Below are positions 1,100 through 43,629 of a DNA stretch of 64,000 nucleotides, in pieces (positions within the stretch are counted from its first letter, which is position 1; each line of letters begins with the position of its first letter). The stretch covers positions 8,617-72,616 of the forward strand of contig JADZEH010000024.1 of NCBI GenBank assembly GCA_020850635.1, read 5' to 3'. The position numbers and the translations under genes were made by a program. Source of the DNA: Candidatus Doudnabacteria bacterium. GTDB taxonomy: Bacteria > Patescibacteriota > Doudnabacteria > UBA920. Under the pieces are notes generated by a model that saw only the letters and a list, made by a program, of their open reading frames with translations, did no database searches and was not told the DNA's origin.

Positions 1100-2688
1100 G
1101 TCTGTCGTTTCCTTAGAACTTGGCCGCTTAGAGTCTTGAGTGTAATCCCAGACTTTACAGTGAGTTGGCCATTAATCAGAACATGTTCAATTCCTCGAGG
1201 AAAGCGATAGGGGCTTGTTAGGGTTGCTGTATCGACAATAGTAGAAGGGTTAAAAATAACGATATCGGCTTTTTTCCCAACAGCGAGTTCACCACGATCA
1301 GTAATACCCACGACTTGTGCAGCCGTACTTGTGAGTTTGCGAATCGCCTCGCTTAAAGAAATGGCATTAGTGTCTCGGACGTCAGCTAAAAATTTAGGGG
1401 CTGTGCCAAAACAACGAGGATGAACTAAGCGGTCGTTAACTACACCACTGGTGACGCCCTGTGGGTTGGGAAAGCCTGCTCCATCGGTAGCGACCAAAGA
1501 AAACGGATGCATTACCAAACTCTCAACAGTTTTAGAATCGAGGGTTTGATCAAAAACCATAATTTCTGTGCCACCGTGTTCAATGAGCAAGAGTAGAGCT
1601 TCTTCACTCGTTATTTCAAAATCCTTAGCAATGTGGGATAGTCTCTTGCCGATTACGTTAAGTTTGTTAGCCGTAGATACCACCAATAGTTCGGGTAAGG
1701 TCGAGTTAGTGTTATGCAAGTGTTCAATAACTTTTTTTCGTTTGGTTGGGTCTTTGAGTTCGCTTAAGATGTGATTTCTACCACCAATTCTAATCCATGA
1801 CGGTAAGTATCGAGTAATATTTTGCCAAACCGTATCGTATGGGTAAACATCAAACCAGACATCAACACCTTGATGGCGTGCGGTTTCAAGCCGGTCGATA
1901 ACATGTTCCAATACGTGCTTATCTTGTCCCCCACTTAATTTTAAGTGAGAGATTTTTAGTTTGACTCCAGTGTCCTTCGCGAGCTCCAAAACTTCATCAA
2001 GGCTTTCGATAATATTTTCATCTTCGTTGCGTAAATGCACCGAAAATAAACCTTTGGTTTTAGCGACGGCTTCAACAAAATCTTTTAGTTCAATCGGAGT
2101 GACTGATAGTTCATGTCCGTAACCTAGCCCATTAGATAAACCAAAGGCTCCTTGAGCTAAACTTTGTTCTAGAAAAGCGAGTAAGGTTTTAGATTCTTGA
2201 GTTTGAAGAGCGTTAGCGTTTCCTCCTACAAGCCCGCGACGAAGCGTGCTGTATCCGACAAGGCTAGCAACGTTACACCCAAGTTCACTCATCTGTAGTG
2301 TCTCTATAAATTCTGAAAAACTGCTCCAGTTAACGTTTGCCCCTTCTAGGGAATGCCATTTTTGCATAGCACTTAACGATTCTCTGGAAAGCAGTGGAGC
2401 TAGGCTTGCTCCACAGTGTCCAACCACAATAGTTGTAAAACCTTGAGCACGTAAACTATCTAAAGAGGGGTTATCAAAAAGTTGCCAGTAGCTGTCGCTA
2501 TGGTTTTGGACATCGATAAAACCTGGGCAGACCACAAGTCCTTGGGCATCGATGACTGTTTGTCCAGCTGTGTCGATGGAGTCGGCAATCCGAACGATTT
2601 GTTCGCCTTCAATCGCGATGTCACCGTGACGCGGTTGACTGCCGGTACCATCAATGATGCTGGCATTTTTAATAACAACTGAATACAT
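1096..2688 (-). CDS. Amidohydrolase of the D-aminoacylase / N-acyl-D-amino-acid deacylase family
   Basis: 530 aa. N-terminal IIDGTG...DIAIEGEQI...VCPGFIDVQNHSD metal-binding signature typical of the D-aminoacylase family. Confidence 0.7.
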   Translation of the reverse strand: MYSVVIKNASIIDGTGSQPRHGDIAIEGEQIVRIADSIDTAGQTVIDAQGLVVCPGFIDVQNHSDSYWQLFDNPSLDSLRAQGFTTIVVGHCGASLAPLLSRESLSAMQKWHSLEGANVNWSSFSEFIETLQMSELGCNVASLVGYSTLRRGLVGGNANALQTQESKTLLAFLEQSLAQGAFGLSNGLGYGHELSVTPIELKDFVEAVAKTKGLFSVHLRNEDENIIESLDEVLELAKDTGVKLKISHLKLSGGQDKHVLEHVIDRLETARHQGVDVWFDVYPYDTVWQNITRYLPSWIRIGGRNHILSELKDPTKRKKVIEHLHNTNSTLPELLVVSTANKLNVIGKRLSHIAKDFEITSEEALLLLIEHGGTEIMVFDQTLDSKTVESLVMHPFSLVATDGAGFPNPQGVTSGVVNDRLVHPRCFGTAPKFLADVRDTNAISLSEAIRKLTSTAAQVVGITDRGELAVGKKADIVIFNPSTIVDTATLTSPYRFPRGIEHVLINGQLTVKSGITLKTLSGQVLRKRQT

Positions 2689-2696
2689 AAATTTCT

Positions 2697-3743
2697 TTAG
2701 AGATATCGATCAAGGAAAAAAATTATAACTCCAATAATACTTGTGACTGCGGAAATAATCCAAAAACGCATGGTTACTTTAGTTTCGGGCCAGCCTAATG
2801 CTTCAAAGTGGTGATGTATCGGAGCTGATATAAATATTTTCCGTTTAAAGACTTTTTTAGAAAAGATTTGAATGATCGCGCTAAAAGCTTCGATTACAAA
2901 AATAAATCCAATCAAAGGCAGGAGTAAAACGGAGTTGGTTAAAAATGCGACAATAGCCAAAAGCACACCCAGACCCATAGAACCCGTATCGCCCATGATA
3001 AATCTCGCTGGGTATACGTTAAACCACAGGAAAGCTAGCAAGCCACCGATCGTGACTCCTAGAAACGCGGCTAAGTTTTCTCTTCCACTCATGTAAGAAA
3101 TCAAAGAGAAAGATAGAAAAGCAATTAACAGTGTGCCTCCAGCTAGCCCATCTAAGCCGTCGGTTTCATTCACAGCAAAACTAGTCCCAACCACGACTAA
3201 AATAAAGAATGGGATAAAGAGCCAGCCAATTTCTAAATTTCCATAAAAAGGAACATGCAAATAACTAAAATCTAATTTGAAATAAAACCACCACGCACCA
3301 ATTATGGCCACCAGTGTATACAAGAAAACTTTAAAGCGGAAAGGAAAACCCCGACCTTTATGGCCTAAGCGATTGATGTCTAGAAAATCGTCAGCGAGAC
3401 CAACGAGTGAGGCTCCAAGAAACGCACCAAGTGGCAGTAAGGTTTCGCGACGTGTCAAAAAGTTGAAACCATGTGCTCCGGGAATTTCAAAAATACGATC
3501 AGCAATCCAAAAAACCACAGCAATAATAACAACGGTACCCCAGACTAAAATTCCCCCCATGGTTGGGGTGCCTTTTTTATCTTTATGTAAGGCTGAGAAT
3601 ACTGGAGTACTCCCATCATCGCGAATATTTTTACCAAGTTTGTATTTATATAAAAAGTGGGTAAGCAGTGGAGTGGCTAGTAACGCAAAAACGAATCCAA
3701 TCGAGGTCAGAGTGAAAATTTTGGTCAAAATCAGTGAAGTCAT
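2697..3743 (-). CDS. mraY: Phospho-N-acetylmuramoyl-pentapeptide transferase MraY
   Basis: 348 aa polytopic membrane protein with NETDGLDGLAGG and PIHHHFE motifs. Confidence 0.95.
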   Translation of the reverse strand: MTSLILTKIFTLTSIGFVFALLATPLLTHFLYKYKLGKNIRDDGSTPVFSALHKDKKGTPTMGGILVWGTVVIIAVVFWIADRIFEIPGAHGFNFLTRRETLLPLGAFLGASLVGLADDFLDINRLGHKGRGFPFRFKVFLYTLVAIIGAWWFYFKLDFSYLHVPFYGNLEIGWLFIPFFILVVVGTSFAVNETDGLDGLAGGTLLIAFLSFSLISYMSGRENLAAFLGVTIGGLLAFLWFNVYPARFIMGDTGSMGLGVLLAIVAFLTNSVLLLPLIGFIFVIEAFSAIIQIFSKKVFKRKIFISAPIHHHFEALGWPETKVTMRFWIISAVTSIIGVIIFFLDRYL

Positions 3744-14719: not shown

Positions 14720-15742
14720 TTATTGAATACAAATATAGTTCCAGGTTTCGGCTCCGCCAGTTGTAGAGGCAACGAAATTTAAGGTAAGAGCTGTGGTAGA
14801 CGAAGTTACATAAACCTTACCGGCATCTACTTGGCCAGTGTCCGTGGCTGGGCTTACAGTGCATACCGGAGCCGATGCGTAAGCGGTTTGGAAAGTAACA
14901 ACTAAAGTCCCTGCTCCAGCGCCGACAGTTGCTGAAATTTTTCCTTTAGTATCGCTACTTCCTGAACTCAAAGTGGCACCGCTATAACCAGCACCTGTAA
15001 CGCTGGGTGTTGGGGCTGTTGTCTGTGATGAAATCAAGTGAGAAGTCGCTGGTCCAAGTGTAACGTTAGTACCCACAGTTACACCACTTGCCGCGATAGT
15101 AACAACGGCCGTGGTTGGTCTAGCTGCAAAGCCACCCGTAAAACCAATTCCGATAGTACTAGCACTGTGTGGGTAAATTGCACCAACATTACCTGGGGTA
15201 TTCAGAGTATAACCAATTCCGGATCCTCCATAGAGAATAATTCCACCCGTACCTGCTCCATTTGCTTCTGACCCAATTGCCAGAGTACCATTACTACTCG
15301 CGCTTGCTACTGAACTTGCCGACAGTCGCATTATGGTGTCTGGGCTAACTGGATTTGCTCCTGGAGGTGACCACAGAAAATCGAATGATGGACTACCAGC
15401 AAAATCACCCATTGAAATATTAGTCCCTAACACACTCGTATCATCTAAATTGTACGAATTATAGGTAGCTGTTGGGGACATATTAAAAGTAAACTGTGAC
15501 AACCTTATCAAATCTGAAAGCACAGAAGAGGTGGCCATATGAGCATACATACCAGTTTCAGCAATTGGGATCCTTAAAGTTCCCGTTAAAGTAGTGTCCC
15601 CGGTGATTGCAACTGATGTCCCTTGCAAAGCAATTAAGCCGTCCGATGTTATCGTAGTCGAGCCAACTGTTAAAGCCGCTTGTGCGGATTTTGCACTAGT
15701 AAATAATAGTGCAATAAAAATTAAAAAATAGAGTTTTTTCAT
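14720..15742 (-). CDS. Secreted Gly/Thr/Ser-rich repeat protein (paralog 1; candidate surface/adhesin beta-solenoid)
   Basis: Signal peptide ...SAKSAQA. Conserved AALTVG...ITSDGL block shared with the 30749-31600 product. Low-complexity G/T/S/A repeats. C-terminal Cys pair (VCTVSP...NYICIQ). Confidence 0.6.
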   Translation of the reverse strand: MKKLYFLIFIALLFTSAKSAQAALTVGSTTITSDGLIALQGTSVAITGDTTLTGTLRIPIAETGMYAHMATSSVLSDLIRLSQFTFNMSPTATYNSYNLDDTSVLGTNISMGDFAGSPSFDFLWSPPGANPVSPDTIMRLSASSVASASSNGTLAIGSEANGAGTGGIILYGGSGIGYTLNTPGNVGAIYPHSASTIGIGFTGGFAARPTTAVVTIAASGVTVGTNVTLGPATSHLISSQTTAPTPSVTGAGYSGATLSSGSSDTKGKISATVGAGAGTLVVTFQTAYASAPVCTVSPATDTGQVDAGKVYVTSSTTALTLNFVASTTGGAETWNYICIQ

Positions 15743-15886: not shown

Positions 15887-18610
15887 TTATTTCTTAGCTA
15901 AGTTTTGTTGATGTTCAGGTGTGTTGAGTAATTCGCACTTCTTGTACTTCTTTCCGCTTCCACAAGGGCAAGGGTCATTACGGCCGACGTCGTTATTACT
16001 AGAAGCATCAGGGTCACCAGAAGCCGCTTGTGCGCCATCAGATGAGCTCAAAACGATGTTACCGGTCGCTTGTTGGACTTCTTGAGGGGCCTGCACCGTA
16101 ACTTTCAAAACCATCGACGCGATTTGCTTGTTTAATTCCTTTAGCAAGCCTTGGAACATAATAAAGCCTTCTTTTTTGTATTCAACTAACGGATCTCTTT
16201 GACCATAACCGCGTAAACGTACTGAGTCACGCAAGTGATCCATGGTATCTAAGTGTTCCATCCATAAGGTATCCAAAGTTTGCAACGCAATATAACGTAT
16301 GATTTGCTCATACTGCTTCTCGCCTAATTCTTGTTCTTTGATTGCAAAATAATCTTCAGCAGCCTTAGTTAAAGCATCAGTGATTGCAAACTCTTTGCTG
16401 GCAGCGTTTCTACTTGCTTCAACAACCTTTGCCTGTACTTCTGGCGTAACTGGTAAGATGGTGTTGGCTTGTTCGAAAATTGTTTTTAAGGCTTCCTGGG
16501 AATCTTCAATTGATTCTGTGTTGAAAGTGACTAACTCCGAAATTTCATTGCGAATAAATCCAAGAACCTCTTCCTTTACATCAAGAGCTTCTTCATTTTC
16601 GCCGATTACACCTAAGTAGCGCTTGCGACGTTTGTAAATTACGGTGCGTTGATGATTCAAGACATCATCAAATTCAAGAACATGTTTTCGAGTATCAAAG
16701 TTTAATCCTTCAATTTTTTTCTGAGCTTGTTCAATAGAACGAGATACGAGACTGGCTTCGATAGGCTGATCATCTTCAAGGCCTAAGCGAGTCATCATGT
16801 TTTTCATACGCTCGCCACCAAAGAGGCGCATGAGATCGTCTTCCATGCTGACAAAGAACTGACTGCGACCATTATCGCCTTGACGACCAGAACGTCCACG
16901 GAGCTGGTTATCAATACGACGAGATTCGTGTCGCTCTGTACCTAAAACGTATAAACCACCGGCGTCTTGAACACGCTTTGCTTCCTCAGGATCGATTGGA
17001 TTACCACCAAGCAGAATGTCGACACCACGACCAGCAATGTTTGTAGCGAGTGTTACCGCACCAAAACGACCAGCCTGAGCAATAATATTAGCTTCACGTT
17101 CATGGTTTTTAGCATTCAAGATTTCAAACTGAACCCCTGCTTTCTTTAGATGCTCAGCAAGAATTTCGTTTTTAGCAATACTAACCGTACCAATCAAAAT
17201 TGGTTGACCAACTTTATTACGCTCCTTAACTTCATTAGCAATGGCTTTAAACTTCGCTTCCTCAGTTTTGTACACTACATCTGGGGCGTCTTCACGAACC
17301 ATTGGTTTGTTGGTGGGAATTTGCTCAACGTGAAGTTTGTAGATTTTGAAAAATTCTTCTTCTTCGGTTTTAGCCGTACCGGTCATACCAGAAAGTCTGG
17401 AGTATAGGCGGAATAAGTTCTGGAACGTAATTGTGGCTAAAGTCTTGCTCTCTTGCTGAATTTTCACACCCTCTTTAGCTTCGATAGCTTGGTGGAGACC
17501 TTCGCTGTAACGACGACCAAACATCATGCGTCCAGTAAATTCATCAACGATAATAATTTCGTTGTCACGAACCACATAGTCTCGGTCGCGTTTAAACAAA
17601 GTTTTAGCACGAAGGGCTTGCTCAATATGATGTAAGGTTGTTACACCCTTACTGGTGTCGTAAATGTTTTCAACATTTAAAATCTTTTCAATTTTGTTGA
17701 TACCTTCATCGCTCAAGCTGGCTGACTTATGTTTTTCGTCAGTGGTATAGTCAGTGTCTTCTTGGAGACGATCAACGATTTTTGCAAACTCAATATATTT
17801 ATCGGTTGGATCGGTATCCGGCTGAGAAATGATTAAAGGAGTACGAGCTTCATCAATTAAAATGCTGTCGACTTCATCGACGATCACGAAAAACAAATCT
17901 CGCTGAACTAAACGCTCGGCGGATGGTACCATGTTATCGCGCAAATAATCGAAACCGTATTCATTGTTGGTACCGTAGGTAATGTCGGCGGCATAAGCTT
18001 CGCGACGAGTAATTGGTCGCATGTGCTTTACGTCCATAACCAAACCTTGAGTTTCGCTCTCTAAACGATCGATTTCTTCTTGTTCTGGTTGATAAGTTGG
18101 ATCGTAACGGAAAGACTGTTCGTGTTGAATAGAGGAGACAGAAAGACCAAGATAGTGGAAGATGGGACCCATTAAACTCGCATGCCAACGTGCCAAATAG
18201 TCGTTAACAGTAACCAAATGAGCACCACGTCCTGCTAAAGCGTGTAAAACTAAAGGTAAGGTTGCGGTTAAAGTTTTACCTTCACCAGTTTTCATTTCGG
18301 CAATCTTACCTTCTGACAAAACTAAACCACCAACGACTTGAACATCGTAGTGTGATTTGGCAATTGAACGATGTGAGGCTTCGCGAGTTAAAGCGAACAC
18401 ACGATTTCGAATCTCGGCAAGCTTTTTAAAAACTTTGTCTTCAGATTTTAGTTCCGCGAGTTCATCACGATATGTTTTAATCTCAGCCTGAATTTGTTCT
18501 TGGCTGAGATTTTTGATTTCATCAGCAAGTGCGTTAATCTCAGCAAGGTCCTTCTTATATGTGACTAGAGGATCTTTTTCAAAAGAGAATATCTTGGAAA
18601 TAAATGACAT
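15887..18610 (-). CDS. secA: Preprotein translocase ATPase SecA
   Basis: 907 aa. DEAD-like motor domains. C-terminal zinc-binding CPCGSGKKYKKC. Confidence 0.97.
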   Translation of the reverse strand: MSFISKIFSFEKDPLVTYKKDLAEINALADEIKNLSQEQIQAEIKTYRDELAELKSEDKVFKKLAEIRNRVFALTREASHRSIAKSHYDVQVVGGLVLSEGKIAEMKTGEGKTLTATLPLVLHALAGRGAHLVTVNDYLARWHASLMGPIFHYLGLSVSSIQHEQSFRYDPTYQPEQEEIDRLESETQGLVMDVKHMRPITRREAYAADITYGTNNEYGFDYLRDNMVPSAERLVQRDLFFVIVDEVDSILIDEARTPLIISQPDTDPTDKYIEFAKIVDRLQEDTDYTTDEKHKSASLSDEGINKIEKILNVENIYDTSKGVTTLHHIEQALRAKTLFKRDRDYVVRDNEIIIVDEFTGRMMFGRRYSEGLHQAIEAKEGVKIQQESKTLATITFQNLFRLYSRLSGMTGTAKTEEEEFFKIYKLHVEQIPTNKPMVREDAPDVVYKTEEAKFKAIANEVKERNKVGQPILIGTVSIAKNEILAEHLKKAGVQFEILNAKNHEREANIIAQAGRFGAVTLATNIAGRGVDILLGGNPIDPEEAKRVQDAGGLYVLGTERHESRRIDNQLRGRSGRQGDNGRSQFFVSMEDDLMRLFGGERMKNMMTRLGLEDDQPIEASLVSRSIEQAQKKIEGLNFDTRKHVLEFDDVLNHQRTVIYKRRKRYLGVIGENEEALDVKEEVLGFIRNEISELVTFNTESIEDSQEALKTIFEQANTILPVTPEVQAKVVEASRNAASKEFAITDALTKAAEDYFAIKEQELGEKQYEQIIRYIALQTLDTLWMEHLDTMDHLRDSVRLRGYGQRDPLVEYKKEGFIMFQGLLKELNKQIASMVLKVTVQAPQEVQQATGNIVLSSSDGAQAASGDPDASSNNDVGRNDPCPCGSGKKYKKCELLNTPEHQQNLAKK

Positions 18611-27601: not shown

Positions 27602-29038
27602 TTAGAAGTCTTCTTTTGGCTTTTTCGCAAAAAACAACATCCAAAAACTGTTAGCTAAAACTTTAATGTCTAGCCATAAACTCCAATTTTCAATGTAAAA
27701 CATATTAAGACGCATTTCTTCTTCGAAAGGTAAGAGTGGGCGAGAAATAATTGCCAACTGTGATAGACCAAAAATTCCCGGCTTGATACTTAACACTCGT
27801 GGATAGATATGCTTGTAATTTTCAAGTTCAGGTAAAACGTGTGGTCTTGGACCAACCATACTGATATCACCTTTTAAAACGTTCACGAACTGAGGTAATT
27901 CATCTAACTTAGTCTTACGTAAAAACCGTCCAAAGCGGGTCACCCGTGGGTCATCTTTAAATTTAGAGACGGCACCGTCGCTCCCACCACGGGCATTGTT
28001 TTGGCGCATTTCCAACCATAATTTTTCAGCTTCTTCTCCGCCATAACCCTCACCTACGCTTAGATGAGCGTGCATACTACGAAATTTGTAAAACCAAAAA
28101 GCTTTGTTACGACTCCCTCTTTGCGCAGAGTAAATTACAGGACCACGACTATCAAGTTTGATTCCAATTGCGATTAATATAAACAGTGGACTGGTTATAA
28201 CAATACAAATAGTGCTAACAATAATATCGAAAATTCGTTTGACTACTTTCCCCCATCCATCTAATGGTGTGTTTTTTAAACTAATAATTGGGATACCTTT
28301 AACCGTACTTACCTCGACAACATTTCGTTGCACCTCAAAAAGATTTGGGACGAAACTAAATTGTAACCCGTGCTTACGAACAAACTCAACGATTTTAAAA
28401 TTAGCTGTGTCACTTAATGACGCATTGGTTTGCATAATTTCATCAAACCGATTTTCAGCATAAAGCTTCTCAAGCTCCGACATCGTATTGTTGTCATATG
28501 GTAACTCTGCAACCAAGCGATATCCCAGACTTTTGTTCTTATACACCGACTCAATTATCTTTGACTCTTGATTGTTACCATTGATAATAACCAACCGATG
28601 TAGTCCAAGTCCGCGTTTGAATAAAACTTTTTGAATATTTTTTAAAATCAGTCGTCCGAAAACAACCAAGATAATACTCAAAACCCAAGTAGCTAAAACA
28701 ATAAAGCGTGAGGGAAAGAGTTCGCGATTAAAGAAGAATAAAATTATAACCAAAAATAGACCAAGAGACACGCCCAAAACCACTCGCCAGAACTCCTGAC
28801 TAAATTTTCTCGTCCCCTTCAAATTATACAAACCAAGACTTCCAAAAATGAGCAACATAATTGGAATGACAAAAGTCAGAACTCCTAAAAATTCAGAAAG
28901 TTGCAAGTTGTAGATGACTGGGCCAACTAACTCTTCAAAACGAAGTCGACTGTAAAAAGAAAAAATCCCCGCCGCCACGAGCATCAAGGCATCTACTGGC
29001 ACAGAGACTATATTAAATACAAGTTCCGGTTTCTTCAT
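27602..29038 (-). CDS. Polyprenyl-phosphate glycosylphosphotransferase (bacterial sugar transferase, WbaP/CpsE-like initiating enzyme)
   Basis: N-terminal TM bundle. KRIFDIIVSTICIVITSPLFILIAIGIKLDSRGPVIY...KFRSM...GDISMVGPRP signature. Confidence 0.85.
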   Translation of the reverse strand: MKKPELVFNIVSVPVDALMLVAAGIFSFYSRLRFEELVGPVIYNLQLSEFLGVLTFVIPIMLLIFGSLGLYNLKGTRKFSQEFWRVVLGVSLGLFLVIILFFFNRELFPSRFIVLATWVLSIILVVFGRLILKNIQKVLFKRGLGLHRLVIINGNNQESKIIESVYKNKSLGYRLVAELPYDNNTMSELEKLYAENRFDEIMQTNASLSDTANFKIVEFVRKHGLQFSFVPNLFEVQRNVVEVSTVKGIPIISLKNTPLDGWGKVVKRIFDIIVSTICIVITSPLFILIAIGIKLDSRGPVIYSAQRGSRNKAFWFYKFRSMHAHLSVGEGYGGEEAEKLWLEMRQNNARGGSDGAVSKFKDDPRVTRFGRFLRKTKLDELPQFVNVLKGDISMVGPRPHVLPELENYKHIYPRVLSIKPGIFGLSQLAIISRPLLPFEEEMRLNMFYIENWSLWLDIKVLANSFWMLFFAKKPKEDF

Positions 29039-29191: not shown

Positions 29192-30235
29192 ATGACAGAA
29201 ACTCTACATTACAAAACAGCTGTTCTGTTCGGTGGCGCAGGATTTATCGGGACTCATTTGGCAGCAAGCTTGCTTAAAAGTTCTACTGTTGAAGAAGTCT
29301 TTTTAGCTGACCTCGTCTCTACTCCAACCAACCTCTGGCCAAAAGAGCTTCAAGAATTTAGTACTCAGGGAAAAGTCCATTTTGTGGAGTTGGATGTGAG
29401 GAAGCCAATACAACATTCTGATCTCCCACAAAACGTTGACTTAATCGTAAACTTAGCTGCCATTCATAAACAACCTGGACACAACGAACAGGAGTACTTT
29501 GAAACGAACTTGGCCGGTGCAGAAAATGTATGCGCCTGGGCCATTCAAGTTAAGTGTAACAAAATGATTTTTACAAGTAGTATTGCCACGTTTGGCAAAG
29601 CCACTGAACCTAAAACAGAAGACTCACTACCAACCCCAAACACTCCTTACGGTATTTCCAAACTTGTCGCTGAAAAAATTCACTTAACCTGGCAAGCTGG
29701 TAACTCCTCACGACGTTTATTAATCGTTCGTCCTGGAGTTATTTTTGGTCATAACGAAAATGGCAACGTTACCCGCATGATTAAAGCAGTTTTGGGACGA
29801 TATTTCTTTTATACCGGGAATAAAAAAGTTCGCAAAGCTGGAGGATACGTAAAAGAACTTTGTAATTCAATGATGTGGATGCTTAGACATCAAAATATAA
29901 AAGATCAACCAGTTCTTTTATATAATTTCAGCATGGACCCAGCACCAACAGTAGAAGATTATGTTCATGCTATAAACAAAACCGTAAATCGAAGCAACTT
30001 CACTCCTAACGTTCCCCATACCCTACTCCTCACCGCTTCTTACTTTATCGAAGCCCTTGCCCGTGTCTTGAAAATCAAACAACCGATTAGCCCAGTAAGA
30101 ATGAAAAAGCTCGTGCATCAAAATTTGATTGTGCCAACTGTACTCAAAGATTCAGGCTACACTTACCAGTACACTTTAGAGTCAGCGATGGCTGATTGGA
30201 AACAGGAATGGCCGGAAGACTGGTCAAAGAAGTAA
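29192..30235 (+). CDS. NAD-dependent epimerase/dehydratase (SDR family)
   Basis: VLFGGAGFIGTHLAASLL Rossmann motif. Divergent from the sugar-transferase operon. Confidence 0.85.
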   Translation: MTETLHYKTAVLFGGAGFIGTHLAASLLKSSTVEEVFLADLVSTPTNLWPKELQEFSTQGKVHFVELDVRKPIQHSDLPQNVDLIVNLAAIHKQPGHNEQEYFETNLAGAENVCAWAIQVKCNKMIFTSSIATFGKATEPKTEDSLPTPNTPYGISKLVAEKIHLTWQAGNSSRRLLIVRPGVIFGHNENGNVTRMIKAVLGRYFFYTGNKKVRKAGGYVKELCNSMMWMLRHQNIKDQPVLLYNFSMDPAPTVEDYVHAINKTVNRSNFTPNVPHTLLLTASYFIEALARVLKIKQPISPVRMKKLVHQNLIVPTVLKDSGYTYQYTLESAMADWKQEWPEDWSKK

Positions 30236-30292: not shown

Positions 30293-30295
30293 ATA

Positions 30296-30621
30296 CTTTT
30301 AGCAAACTCGTAAGCCGAATTCTGTTTCTAAATAATCATCTATCTTGTCCTGCTGTTACCACCAGGATCATGCTGCCTACCAAATTTGGCATTGCACTCA
30401 GGTAAGGATTTGGCCGTTTCACCCTCTACATTACTGCAAAGGTTCACCCCGAAGGGTGCTCTTGGCTTGCGCCGCCAGCGTCACTGTTCGCACCTCTAAA
30501 ATTACTTTCGACGGGAATTACCCGCTACCCTTGTTAATGACTCTATAGTGGCCATCAACTAAGTGTTCGGACTTTCCTCTCTTAGCCTTGCGGTAAGAGC
30601 GATTATTCGATTTGCTAAAAG
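30296..30621 (-). ncRNA. rnpB: RNase P RNA (bacterial type; M1-like ribozyme)
   Basis: The minus strand carries GAGGAAAGUCCGAACAC (P4 5-prime strand), GGGUGAAACGG, ACAGAAUUCGGCUUAC (P4 3-prime strand). Terminal P1 pairing is CUUUUAGCAAAU / GUUUGCUAAAAG. No ORF. About 326 nt. Confidence 0.8.
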
Positions 30622-30628
30622 CCCCAAA

Positions 30629-30657
30629 ATAATATCATATTTGGGGGCTTTTGTCAA
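30629..30657 (-). promoter_or_regulatory. Sigma70-like promoter TTGACA-17-TATTAT upstream of rnpB
   Basis: Reverse complement of tgtcaa (30652-30657) and ataata (30629-30634), with a 17-bp spacer. Confidence 0.45.
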
Positions 30658-30689: not shown

Positions 30690-30713
30690 AAAAACCCCTC
30701 CATGCGGAGGGGC
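30690..30713 (-). terminator. Intrinsic terminator after the secreted repeat protein gene (cccctcc/ggagggg)
   Basis: 7-bp GC stem with a tetraloop, then T-run on the minus strand. Confidence 0.55.
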
Positions 30714-30748
30714 TTTAAATTGATATTTGCTACTAAGCAAACTCATGA

Positions 30749-31600
30749 TTAAGGACTGGCATCAGCCCAAGCTGCGCCGGTACAAATCCACAAAATAGCG
30801 GCATCAGTCTCAACGTAAATTCTTCCAGCTTCTCCAGCTGCGTCACAATCGGTACCGGTAGGGGTAGCTGTTCCTGAAGGGATTTCTAGTAAACCAGCAA
30901 TGTTTGTAGTAGAGGTTGCGTGACCTATGTTAACTACATCTGTGGAAGGAACACCCTGAGTAGCAACAATGTTAACGGTTCTTGTACCAGCTAAAGCAGC
31001 TGCATTAGAAATGTTAACAGTTGTATTTCCACTACCCAGTGTATTGTTTGCAATGTTAAGAGTAGTTGTTGTGCCAGCGGCATTTACACCATTGGCAATA
31101 TTTACGGTTTGAATGTTTGTGCCACTTAAGTTAGCAGAACCAATATTAATAATATTTGAAGTACCGTTTGATTGACCAATAGTAATGGTACCTGTCTGAG
31201 CTGTTCCACCGATAGTGATTGTACCAGTAGTCATCGCGGCACCAATAGCAACGGATCCAGCGGTTTGAGTATTACCGATAGCGATAACGTTAGCTCCGGT
31301 TCCACCAACGCTAATGGTTTTAACCACAGCGGCACCAGTACCAATGTTAATTGTCTGTGCGGCTGTTCCAGTTCCCAAGCCAATGGTACCAGTTTGTCCC
31401 GTACCACCTAAAGTCAAAGTTCCAGCAACTGCAGCAGAACCAAGAACGATATCAGAACCTGCAGCAGCTTCCATTGATAAAGCACCATCGCTAGTAACAG
31501 CTAGGGCACCTACAGTCAAAGCTGCTCCGGCAGAACCCGGAACCATCAACGCGATAATTGCCAAACTCGCGGTGGCAATTTGCATTCCTTTTAGTTTCAT
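30749..31600 (-). CDS. Secreted Gly/Thr-rich beta-solenoid-like repeat protein (paralog 2)
   Basis: Signal peptide ...GSAGA. AALTVGALAVTSDGAL block shared with paralog 1. About 14-aa periodic T-x-T-I-x-I-G / N-I-x-N repeats. C-terminal CD...GEAGRIYVETD...LWICTGAAW. Confidence 0.6.
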   Translation of the reverse strand: MKLKGMQIATASLAIIALMVPGSAGAALTVGALAVTSDGALSMEAAAGSDIVLGSAAVAGTLTLGGTGQTGTIGLGTGTAAQTINIGTGAAVVKTISVGGTGANVIAIGNTQTAGSVAIGAAMTTGTITIGGTAQTGTITIGQSNGTSNIINIGSANLSGTNIQTVNIANGVNAAGTTTTLNIANNTLGSGNTTVNISNAAALAGTRTVNIVATQGVPSTDVVNIGHATSTTNIAGLLEIPSGTATPTGTDCDAAGEAGRIYVETDAAILWICTGAAWADASP

Positions 31601-31695
31601 TTTATCTTTCCTTTATTTCAAATATTTTCTATTTGAACAAGTTATTTTATGCATTAATTATACCACACTTTTAATACGCAAGGTGGATAACCTCG

Positions 31696-33012
<1,317 letters not shown>

Positions 33013-43038: not shown

Positions 43039-43629
43039 TTAACTACCTAAAACGTAACGAGCAAAACGACGAACCTGAACGTTCTCACCCATCTTGGCCA
43101 CACCATTACTAATGAGCTGGCTGATTTTCACATTTGGGTCTTTAACAAAAGGTTGTTCAAGTAAACAGACTTCTTCAAAGAATTTCTCAAGCTTGCCTTC
43201 AATCATCTTCGCGACGACATCATCTGGTTTACCTTGGCCAGCAGACTGCTCCTTGTAAATTTCACGTTCTTTCTCAATAACTTCGGCAGGAACTTCTTCA
43301 CGACTGACATACAATGGATTTGCTGCTGCAATATGAAGAGAGAGTTCTTTAGCTAAATTTTTGAAGTCATCAGTGCGAGCAACGAAGTCAGTTTCGCAGT
43401 TGAGTTCAACTAGAACACCGACGCGACCACCAGCATGAATGTAACTTTCAACGATACCTTCACGAGCTTCACGGTCGGCTTTCTTAGCGAGTTTAGTTAC
43501 GCCCTTTTTGCGAAGGAGTTCCATCGCCTTTTCTTTATCACCACCGGCTTCAGAAAGTGCGCTTTGCACATCAAGAATACCAGCACCAGTTATTTCACGG
43601 ATTTCTTTAATGAGATTATTATCTGCCAT
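43039..43629 (-). CDS. tsf: Elongation factor Ts (short form)
   Basis: [44 protein letters not shown]-terminal UBA-like domain. 196 aa. Confidence 0.95.

Follow-up and report, generated by a model that had tools for sequence, protein, structure and literature searches.

We analysed a 64,000-nt stretch of contig JADZEH010000024.1 from Candidatus Doudnabacteria bacterium (assembly GCA_020850635.1, positions 8,617 to 72,616 of the forward strand), referred to below as the window. The subject of this work is a gene on the minus strand of the window (30749..31600) whose open reading frame (ORF), as given in the ORF list, starts with ATG and encodes a protein of 283 aa followed by a stop codon. This protein, the target, consists of a predicted signal peptide, a conserved mature N-terminus, a shaft made of short repeats and a small C-terminal module, or knob. 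Sequence comparison indicates that its shaft is homologous to the shaft, and its knob to the distal tip, of fibre proteins found in uncultivated tailed phages of 34-41 kb. We favour the interpretation that the target is an abundant Sec-exported fibre, probably trimeric and adhesive, that follows the plan of phage receptor-binding fibres; in our judgement this interpretation stands at about an even chance. A surface fibre is more likely than the stand-alone beta-solenoid that a first-pass annotation of this DNA had suggested. We infer the trimerisation, the surface location and the adhesive role from the relatives, the predicted structure and the expression signals described below.

Relationship of the target to phage fibre proteins

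A word-index search with the target retrieved 73 relatives, and a profile search of 1.84 billion cluster representatives yielded 505 of them at E ≤ 1e-3. When the non-orthologous matches were scored with phmmer, E-values ranged from 4.5e-27 to 1e-3, and most of these matches were phage-type proteins. The relatives have a shaft core in common (GTGANVI-IGNTQTAGS---GAAMTTGTI-IGGT--TGTI-IG) and differ at their ends. No family in Pfam, NCBIfam or PHROG matched the shaft, PDB sequences gave zero matches to the family profiles A1 and A2 at E ≤ 10, and a literature search found no description of the shaft-repeat family.

The closest comparison is with fibres of uncultivated phages (P0003, P0026, P0036, L025-L053, and UniProt A0A6J5LF71 and A0A6J5LHP4). 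These proteins contain the same shaft core, with 40-90% identity over the best local segments, and a subset of them has a homologous C-terminal hairpin module. The overall plan of an attachment part, a shaft and a swappable head is also the same. However, the phage proteins are 300-890 aa in length, begin with a virion-attachment domain of roughly 70 aa (YGL..P.I..R.PT..D...G..W), carry a Cys-free knob and are encoded among tail genes. Alternative heads found in the phage class are C1q, Peptidase_S74, K1-lyase_C, an 'NNGAAALNG..FWV' domain and a 'GDxYINT...RxYxAT..G.W' module.

Thirty-five viral contigs in IMG/VR, mostly of 34-41 kb, encode relatives that were confirmed by tblastn. On one of the phage contigs (locus L001) the homolog is adjoined by a C1q fibre gene, and the contig also encodes an ERF recombinase and a tail-fibre assembly protein (phrog_863). 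The best structural matches in BFVD were uncultured Caudovirales proteins with about 30% identity, one of which has a C1q domain. Only 7 of the 119 relatives scanned contained Pfam domains, these being C1q (once), Peptidase_S74 (twice, in P0060 and P0089), K1-lyase_C (three times) and DUF5907. Peptidase_S74 is a chaperone for triple-beta-helix folding. Because six of these seven relatives have domains of trimeric fibres or spikes, because relatives occur in tail-fibre contexts and because the repeat units are short, a trimeric fibre is the best supported organisation for the target.

Several fibre-like genes lie in a row in L001. Together with L025-L053, this locus belongs to a coherent set of uncultivated phage contigs of 34-41 kb in which the shaft is combined with at least five alternative heads.

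The target itself falls into a class of the candidate phyla radiation (CPR) that is characterised by a signal peptide and a fixed mature N-terminus and that accounts for 41 of 200 sequences. Members whose organism is known come from Saccharibacteria and Paceibacterota. This class has at least four different C-terminal heads, most of which contain Cys. One member, P0005, is 42% identical to the target and has the same N- and C-terminal modules. Relatives from Bacteroidota form a further class with an N-terminus of their own (AQVAINTDGS...).

Repeat architecture and predicted fold of the shaft

The shaft, counted as 16 units of a strand motif and a loop, comprises two arrays. Array 1 (residues 50-149; 31154..31453, minus strand) consists of nine units of 10-12 aa, each composed of an x-phi-x-phi-G strand motif, where phi is a hydrophobic residue, and a loop rich in Gly, Thr and Ala. 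This array includes the family core GTGANVIAIGNTQTAGSVAIGAAMTTGTITIGGTAQTGTITIG and is the part that is common to the phage fibre proteins. Array 2 (residues 150-236; 30893..31153, minus strand) has five units that are 14-15 aa long, each with T-V-N-I-x and a loop, and ends in a further, irregular unit.

The motif [ILVM]-x-[ILVM]-[GASV] occurs at 16 sites in the target as compared to 6.4 ± 2.2 sites in composition-preserving shuffles (P(≥16) = 0.0002). The sites are spaced by 23, 11, 11, 11, 12, 10, 11, 11, 11, 12, 15, 15, 14, 14 and 14 residues, which corresponds to a coefficient of variation of 0.24 compared to 0.82 in the shuffles. The BLOSUM autocorrelation was highest at lag 11 (z 4.0), with further peaks at lag 34 (z 3.6) and at lag 22 (z 2.5); in the shuffles, the maxima had a 99th percentile of 3.6. 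Thus, both the parse with its shuffles and the autocorrelation detected periodicity. The first-pass annotation had described a short repeat of the beta-strand type with a period of about 14 residues (13-15 aa). Every repeat string that it quoted is present in the ORF translation, and the pattern of alternating hydrophobic residues followed by Gly is as described. The periodicity exceeds chance, but a period of 14-15 aa applies only to residues 150-222, whereas the period is about 11 aa over residues 50-149. No tandem repeat was found in the target gene at the DNA level; we therefore conclude that the repeat units are old and diverged. Polyglycine-II or collagen-like packing of the shaft was ruled out from the sequence, as Gly does not occupy every third position.

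An AlphaFold2 (AF2) model of the whole protein, built with 57 sequences, had a mean predicted local distance difference test score (pLDDT) of 75 and a predicted template modelling score (pTM) of 0.58. Within the shaft, pLDDT was 80-90 over residues 30-170 and lower (52-76) in array 2. As a disordered chain would not reach pLDDT values of 80-90, the shaft does not appear to be disordered. Nevertheless, DSSP assigned no strand or bridge within residues 20-236, while the strands of the C-terminal module were detected in the same model. The model is thus neither a self-contained parallel beta-helix nor a disordered chain. A parallel beta-helix formed by a single chain is not supported, since the predicted structure contains no intrachain ladder in residues 20-236 and no beta-helix family of Pfam matched. 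At E ≤ 10 the target gave no match to Beta_helix, Pectate_lyase, Hexapep, Pentapeptide or Hep_Hag/YadA in Pfam, and none in NCBIfam. The units, 10-12 aa and then 14-15 aa in length, also depart from the constant coil length, usually 18-25 aa with two or three strands, that is expected of a beta-helix. A confident model without ladders is what the protomer of an intertwined triple beta-helix would look like.

These data bear directly on the possibility that each chain folds alone, as a parallel beta-helix or beta-roll with one or two units per coil and a disulfide-bonded cap, giving a monomeric surface or secreted protein. The regular phi-x-phi-G periodicity would suit such a fold, the autocorrelation peaks at lags 22 and 34 could mean that two or three units form a coil, and giant surface proteins consisting of a single chain contain the repeat as well. 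Moreover, the 14-15 aa of the T-V-N-I units are close to the length of one coil in small beta-rolls, of which the YadA head and the Lolium ice-binding protein are examples. On the other hand, stacked ladders would be expected in the model of a monomeric beta-solenoid, and their absence despite good confidence disfavours this fold, as does the lack of a beta-helix, Hep_Hag or pentapeptide family match at E ≤ 10. Closing a rung with units of 10-12 aa that have only two inward-facing hydrophobic residues would probably require disulfides or metal ions. Finally, six of the seven Pfam-bearing relatives have domains of trimeric phage fibres or spikes. On balance we consider a monomeric solenoid unlikely, although it is the strongest competitor of the trimeric fibre.

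The TITIG, TVNI and TLNI motifs at fixed spacing raise the question of whether the target could be an ice-binding or antifreeze-type protein in which ladders of T-x-T and T-x-N would line up as a flat face that orders water. Thr ladders on short-period solenoids are typical of the antifreeze proteins of insects and grasses. However, neither an ice-binding family match nor a predicted solenoid was obtained for the target, its homologs comprise phage fibres as well as proteins of many phyla and habitats, and its Thr residues lie next to Ile or Val residues that face inwards, an arrangement found in any amphipathic strand. Of all the explanations considered here, we regard this one as the least probable.

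The C-terminal module

The C-terminal module was delimited to residues 237-283 (47 aa; 30752..30892, minus strand) on the basis of AF2, a hidden Markov model (HMM) and alignments. In its model, one short strand and two short turns of helix accompany a beta-meander of three strands (RIYV / ILWIC / AWA). When the module was modelled alone with its alignment, pLDDT was 90.8 and pTM was 0.69. Two Cys residues are invariant in the target, P0001, P0002 and P0005: Cys252 in a DCD motif (codon 30845..30847, minus strand) and Cys273 in a WIC motif, where the second meander strand ends (codon 30782..30784, minus strand). The latter is also present in P0088 and P0116. Residues invariant in the same four proteins also include G259, Y262 and W278. 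The Cys/Trp module that was recognised at the outset is therefore genuinely conserved, being kept in P0001, P0002 and P0005. The idea that it caps a solenoid has to be given up, as the module is an autonomous unit of 45 aa that is found in tandem copies and at the ends of phage fibres.

The module HMM matched the C-terminus of P0005 with an E-value of 1e-28 and identified four tandem copies in P0116 (1e-27 to 1e-28), each with four Cys residues. In the 200-sequence set, the C-termini of phage fibres were matched with E-values of 1e-5 to 2e-2; the best scores, for P0036 (1e-5), P0026 (1.6e-4) and P0053 (4e-4), indicate a distant relationship. In a MAFFT alignment, the target module and the phage tips have in common a G, a P, A-E-A-G, a Y, a T, phi-[YW]-phi and the final W. 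The two Cys residues are jointly present in the Saccharibacteria proteins and jointly absent in the phage forms. Their positions vary among related modules, such that P0116 has four and P0123 uses C2 plus C3, and in P0196 the same hairpin motif is repeated in tandem about 25 times without Cys. A putative C252-C273 disulfide would be plausible for an exported protein.

Other searches with the module were negative. A word-index homology search with the module alone (51 aa) returned no match, this index requiring three shared 5-mers. The module alignment had no match in Pfam, and the module profile gave only chance matches, to auracyanin and cyclophilin, among PDB sequences. The Foldseek comparison, which had been proposed initially, gave no significant PDB match for the module. 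The top matches (E 1.6-10) are mostly protomers of trimers, namely CBA120 TSP3, Mtd of a Bordetella phage, HylP1 of a streptococcal phage and the trimerisation domains of collagen XV/XVIII. The collagen XV domain (3n3f) aligned with the module (54-aa query) over 26 columns with a root-mean-square deviation of 1.2 Å, a template modelling score of 0.44 and an E-value of 2.8.

The hairpin motif G-x-x-[YW]-x-x-T...[YWF]-x-x-x-G-x-W was also observed in P0196, in P0116 and in N-terminal domains of phage and Bacteroidota proteins (GLLIYQTDNTPGFYYYNGLTW); P0062 and P0029-type N-termini are further examples. The motif appears to represent a small module of wide occurrence for which Pfam has no family.

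Selection, gene order and expression signals

Two orthologs of the target were 84% (P0001) and 75% (P0002) identical to it. P0002 is encoded in a metagenome-assembled genome of Candidatus Saccharibacteria (locus L003, 6001..6756). Comparison of the target ORF with the L003 ortholog over 251 codons yielded a ratio of nonsynonymous to synonymous substitution rates (dN/dS) of 0.146, with dN at 0.11 and dS at 0.78. From this low ratio we conclude that the target ORF is a real gene under purifying selection; a spurious ORF in low-complexity DNA was ruled out by the same value. P0002 is 32 aa shorter than the target, owing to a gap at about residues 162-193 of the window protein. This gap removes roughly two 14-15-aa units, indicating that the number of repeat units differs among close relatives.

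The order DEAD-box helicase, 217-aa gene, His_Phos, enolase, target is common to the window and to the P0002 locus. The direct surroundings of the target consist of enolase, RNase P RNA, undecaprenyl-diphosphate synthase and DEAD-box helicase genes, and the window as a whole has the content of a core chromosome, in our reading that of a Saccharibacterium (TM7), including secA, murB, enolase, dnaE, thrS, tsf, rpsB, tRNAs and RNase P RNA.

Since the shaft and tip are common to phage fibre proteins, the gene could be thought of as a leftover or recently acquired phage fibre gene, i.e. a prophage remnant without function for the cell. This explanation is very improbable. The target carries a signal peptide in place of the N-terminal virion-attachment domain of the phage class, and its neighbours are housekeeping genes that occur in the same order in another genome, with no phage genes nearby. 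In addition, the gene is under purifying selection and its codon usage is better adapted than that of translation genes.

The gene has its own expression signals. An extended -10 promoter element without a good -35 element (TGGTATAAT; 31657..31665, minus strand) was read from the sequence 31-39 nt downstream of the enolase stop codon. A block of 24 nt around it (GTATTAAAAGTGTGGTATAATTAA) is identical in L003, and the flanks have diverged. The element was not listed by a promoter consensus scan, which demands a -35 hexamer. The ribosome-binding site AAAGGAAAG (31606..31614, minus strand) ends 5 nt upstream of the ATG and is kept in L003. Starting 32 nt past the stop codon, an intrinsic terminator (AAAGCCCCUCC-GCAU-GGAGGGGUUUUU; 30690..30716, minus strand) forms a CCCCUCC-GCAU-GGAGGGG hairpin that is followed by UUUUU. 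The hairpin was also listed by the consensus scan. It too is kept in L003, and the terminator region, a 76-nt stretch that includes a second small hairpin, folds with -26.2 kcal/mol (z -5.2). The strong terminator that had been assigned to this gene is thus well founded and is accompanied by a dedicated promoter. As far as sequence can support it, the combination also agrees with the proposed monocistronic transcription, although read-through from enolase is possible.

Codon usage points to high expression. With an effective number of codons (Nc) of 34.1, the target has the lowest value among 46 genes of the window; the next lowest is EF-Ts (43039..43629) at 37.6, ribosomal protein S2 has 45.8 and the window median is near 50. 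The target uses no GGG, TCG or GTC codons and hardly any ACG or GCG, and NNG codons are almost excluded. High expression, which the first-pass annotation had also considered probable, is therefore likely in view of an Nc below that of EF-Ts.

A highly expressed exported protein could also be the main envelope coat of the cell, i.e. an abundant structural lattice or sheath of the S-layer type instead of a discrete adhesive fibre. The strongest codon bias in the window, the separate promoter and terminator and the signal peptide are all in keeping with such a role, as is the composition, which is acidic with much Thr, Ala and Gly. Nearby genes for sugar transferase, epimerase and glycosyltransferase functions would suit a glycosylated coat protein. 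However, neither Pfam nor NCBIfam yielded an SLH or other S-layer match, and the mature protein is only about 26 kDa. Furthermore, the homologs are phage fibre proteins with swappable tips as opposed to lattice proteins, and orthologs are rare in databases, with P0001, P0005 and P0116 each forming a cluster of one member. We judge a coat of this kind to be improbable, somewhat more so than the monomeric solenoid.

Export and proposed assembly of the fibre

Residues 1-26 (31523..31600, minus strand) constitute a Sec-type signal peptide with an MKLK n-region, a hydrophobic core and the cleavage site A-G-A↓A; AF2 placed a helix at residues 6-19. A lipobox Cys is not present. The conserved mature N-terminus that follows (residues 27-49, ALTVGALAVTSDGALSMEAAAGS; 31454..31522, minus strand) is a candidate cap or anchor, and the mature chain would begin with ALTVGALAVTSDGAL if cleavage occurs at AGA↓A, as the sequence suggests. 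An AxA↓ site with [AT]-L-T-phi-G..[ST]-D-G-A-L immediately after it was seen in 41 of 200 relatives, whose bodies differ. Residues 27-49 also had the highest pLDDT in the whole-protein model (88-90).

We propose the following assembly. The protein would be exported by Sec, and the signal peptide would then be removed at AGA↓A. The C-terminal knob could nucleate assembly, as in phage fibres, whereupon three chains would intertwine into a fibre of the triple-beta-helix type, with the shaft zipping up towards the N-terminus. The mature N-terminus (ALTVG..TSDGAL) may cap the fibre or join it to a partner in the envelope. The fibre would stick out from the cell, and the knob, braced by the putative C252-C273 disulfide, would be its distal binding tip for a host bacterium or for another surface.

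Saccharibacteria live attached to other bacteria as epibionts. The probable abundance of the target, the swappable heads of the CPR class and this epibiotic lifestyle are consistent with a family of surface adhesins that exchange tips with phages. In its widest form, the proposal is that receptor-binding fibres of phage type would be a major surface structure of Saccharibacteria and of other CPR/Patescibacteria. The Sec-exported family, with its fixed N-terminal anchor motif, a shaft that resembles a triple beta-helix and belongs to a structurally unsolved repeat class, and interchangeable C-terminal tips, would come from one module pool with the tail fibres of co-occurring phages, and the tips would set the choice of host bacterium. 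We advance this generalisation tentatively, as it is a good deal less probable than the fibre itself.

Several points weigh against a trimeric surface fibre of phage type. No cell anchor is recognisable in the target, as LPXTG, a lipobox, an SLH domain and a second transmembrane segment are all missing, and the protein may simply be released from the cell. The shaft repeat also occurs inside giant CPR and Bacteroidota proteins of 1000-3600 aa. The link to phages rests on metagenomic viral contigs; a tblastn search of 50,697 deposited phage genomes, carried out with the low-complexity filter on, gave no match. The Foldseek matches of the module to protomers of trimers are not significant, and homology of the module to the T4 foldon is not supported (2% probability in hhalign). 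Lastly, codon bias serves only as a proxy for expression level.

Comparison with known fibres and significance

Sharing of modules between cell-surface fibres and phage fibres has precedents in BclA, the Scl proteins and tailocin fibres. Like the proposed fibre, the BclA filaments of the Bacillus exosporium and the collagen-like Scl proteins of streptococci have an anchoring segment at the N-terminus, a shaft with a variable number of repeats and a small head at the C-terminus that serves for trimerisation or binding, with modules that are common with phages. Their shaft is a G-x-y collagen triple helix and the head of BclA is TNF/C1q-like, whereas the target has a phi-x-phi-G shaft and a 47-aa beta-meander head. 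Short repeats of a strand plus Gly are likewise found in the S74-chaperoned triple-beta-helix fibres and spikes of the endosialidase type and in the T4 gp5 needle. However, the gp5 repeat is 8 aa as opposed to the 10-15-aa units of the target, the target lacks an S74 domain, and the solved triple beta-helices gave no sequence match and no significant structural match to it.

Heads of the YadA type (Hep_Hag, a 14-aa left-handed beta-roll) are similar in a local motif (SVAIG...), in units of the 14-aa class and possibly in forming a trimeric adhesive fibre. The target differs from these adhesins in that it has no Hep_Hag/YadA match at E ≤ 10, no beta-barrel anchor, mostly 11-aa units and no predicted beta-roll. 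The trimerisation domain of collagen XV/XVIII and the T4 fibritin foldon resemble the knob in size (27-55 aa), in being a beta-hairpin or meander and in their position at the end of a fibre, but the relationship is not significant.

What is new here is the combination of an uncurated and unsolved shaft repeat and tip, an exported form specific to CPR that has a fixed mature N-terminus, very probable high expression, and clear sharing of modules with a coherent group of 34-41 kb uncultivated phages. Host binding of Saccharibacteria has so far been tied mainly to type IV pili, the only adhesion system that the retrieved papers discuss. With the target gene there is a candidate for a second surface fibre, one that would be very abundant and could owe its attachment specificity to its tip. 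A structure would define a new class of fibre repeat and annotate hundreds of dark phage and CPR proteins; this value shrinks to that of a family annotation if the target is a plain monomeric repeat protein.

Other features of the window and of related loci

The target had initially been called a paralog. The window does contain a weak paralog on the minus strand at 14720..15742 (tblastn E 1e-8, 22% identity). The gene lies immediately downstream of secA (15887..18610) and encodes 340 aa. Its product has the signal peptide and ALTVG..TSDG N-terminus (ALTVGSTTITSDG) seen in the target, but a body and head other than those of the target. This head of roughly 110 aa contains two Cys residues (LGPATSH.ISSQTTAPT...W.YIC.Q) and is common to P0071, P0064, P0066 and P0100. 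Scans of the paralog against Pfam, PHROG and NCBIfam gave no match.

Directly after the target terminator comes the gene for RNase P RNA (30295..30618, minus strand; Rfam RF00010, 108.6 bits). Its promoter (30629..30657, minus strand) is of the sigma-70 type with 11/12 matching positions, TTGACA-17-TATTAT with a TG extension, and overlaps a GCCCCCAAA...TTTGGGGC hairpin; this arrangement is kept in L003. A sugar transferase (27602..29038) and an NAD-dependent epimerase (29192..30235) were confirmed in the window. ORFs of glycosyltransferase size flank the region (at about 20.6-30.2 kb and 37.4-39.7 kb of the window), and the ortholog locus has glycosyltransferase genes of the GT4 and GT1 types.

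An exact-sequence look-up did not find the window protein in the protein collection. The ORFs that overlap the target gene at 31172..31411 (plus strand), 31231..31407 (minus strand) and 31314..31778 (plus strand) are by-products of the repeat composition. Supposed relatives from Latescibacterota (L019 and L022, 5503..6666) turned out to be flagellins with only a short GxxSQTINIGT-like stretch in the variable region, and are probably not homologous to the target. The P0005 locus (L060) is not syntenic with the window and has HU upstream; P0005 is adjoined there by a gene (2263..3315) for an exported protein of 350 aa with a PPV-rich linker and no family match.

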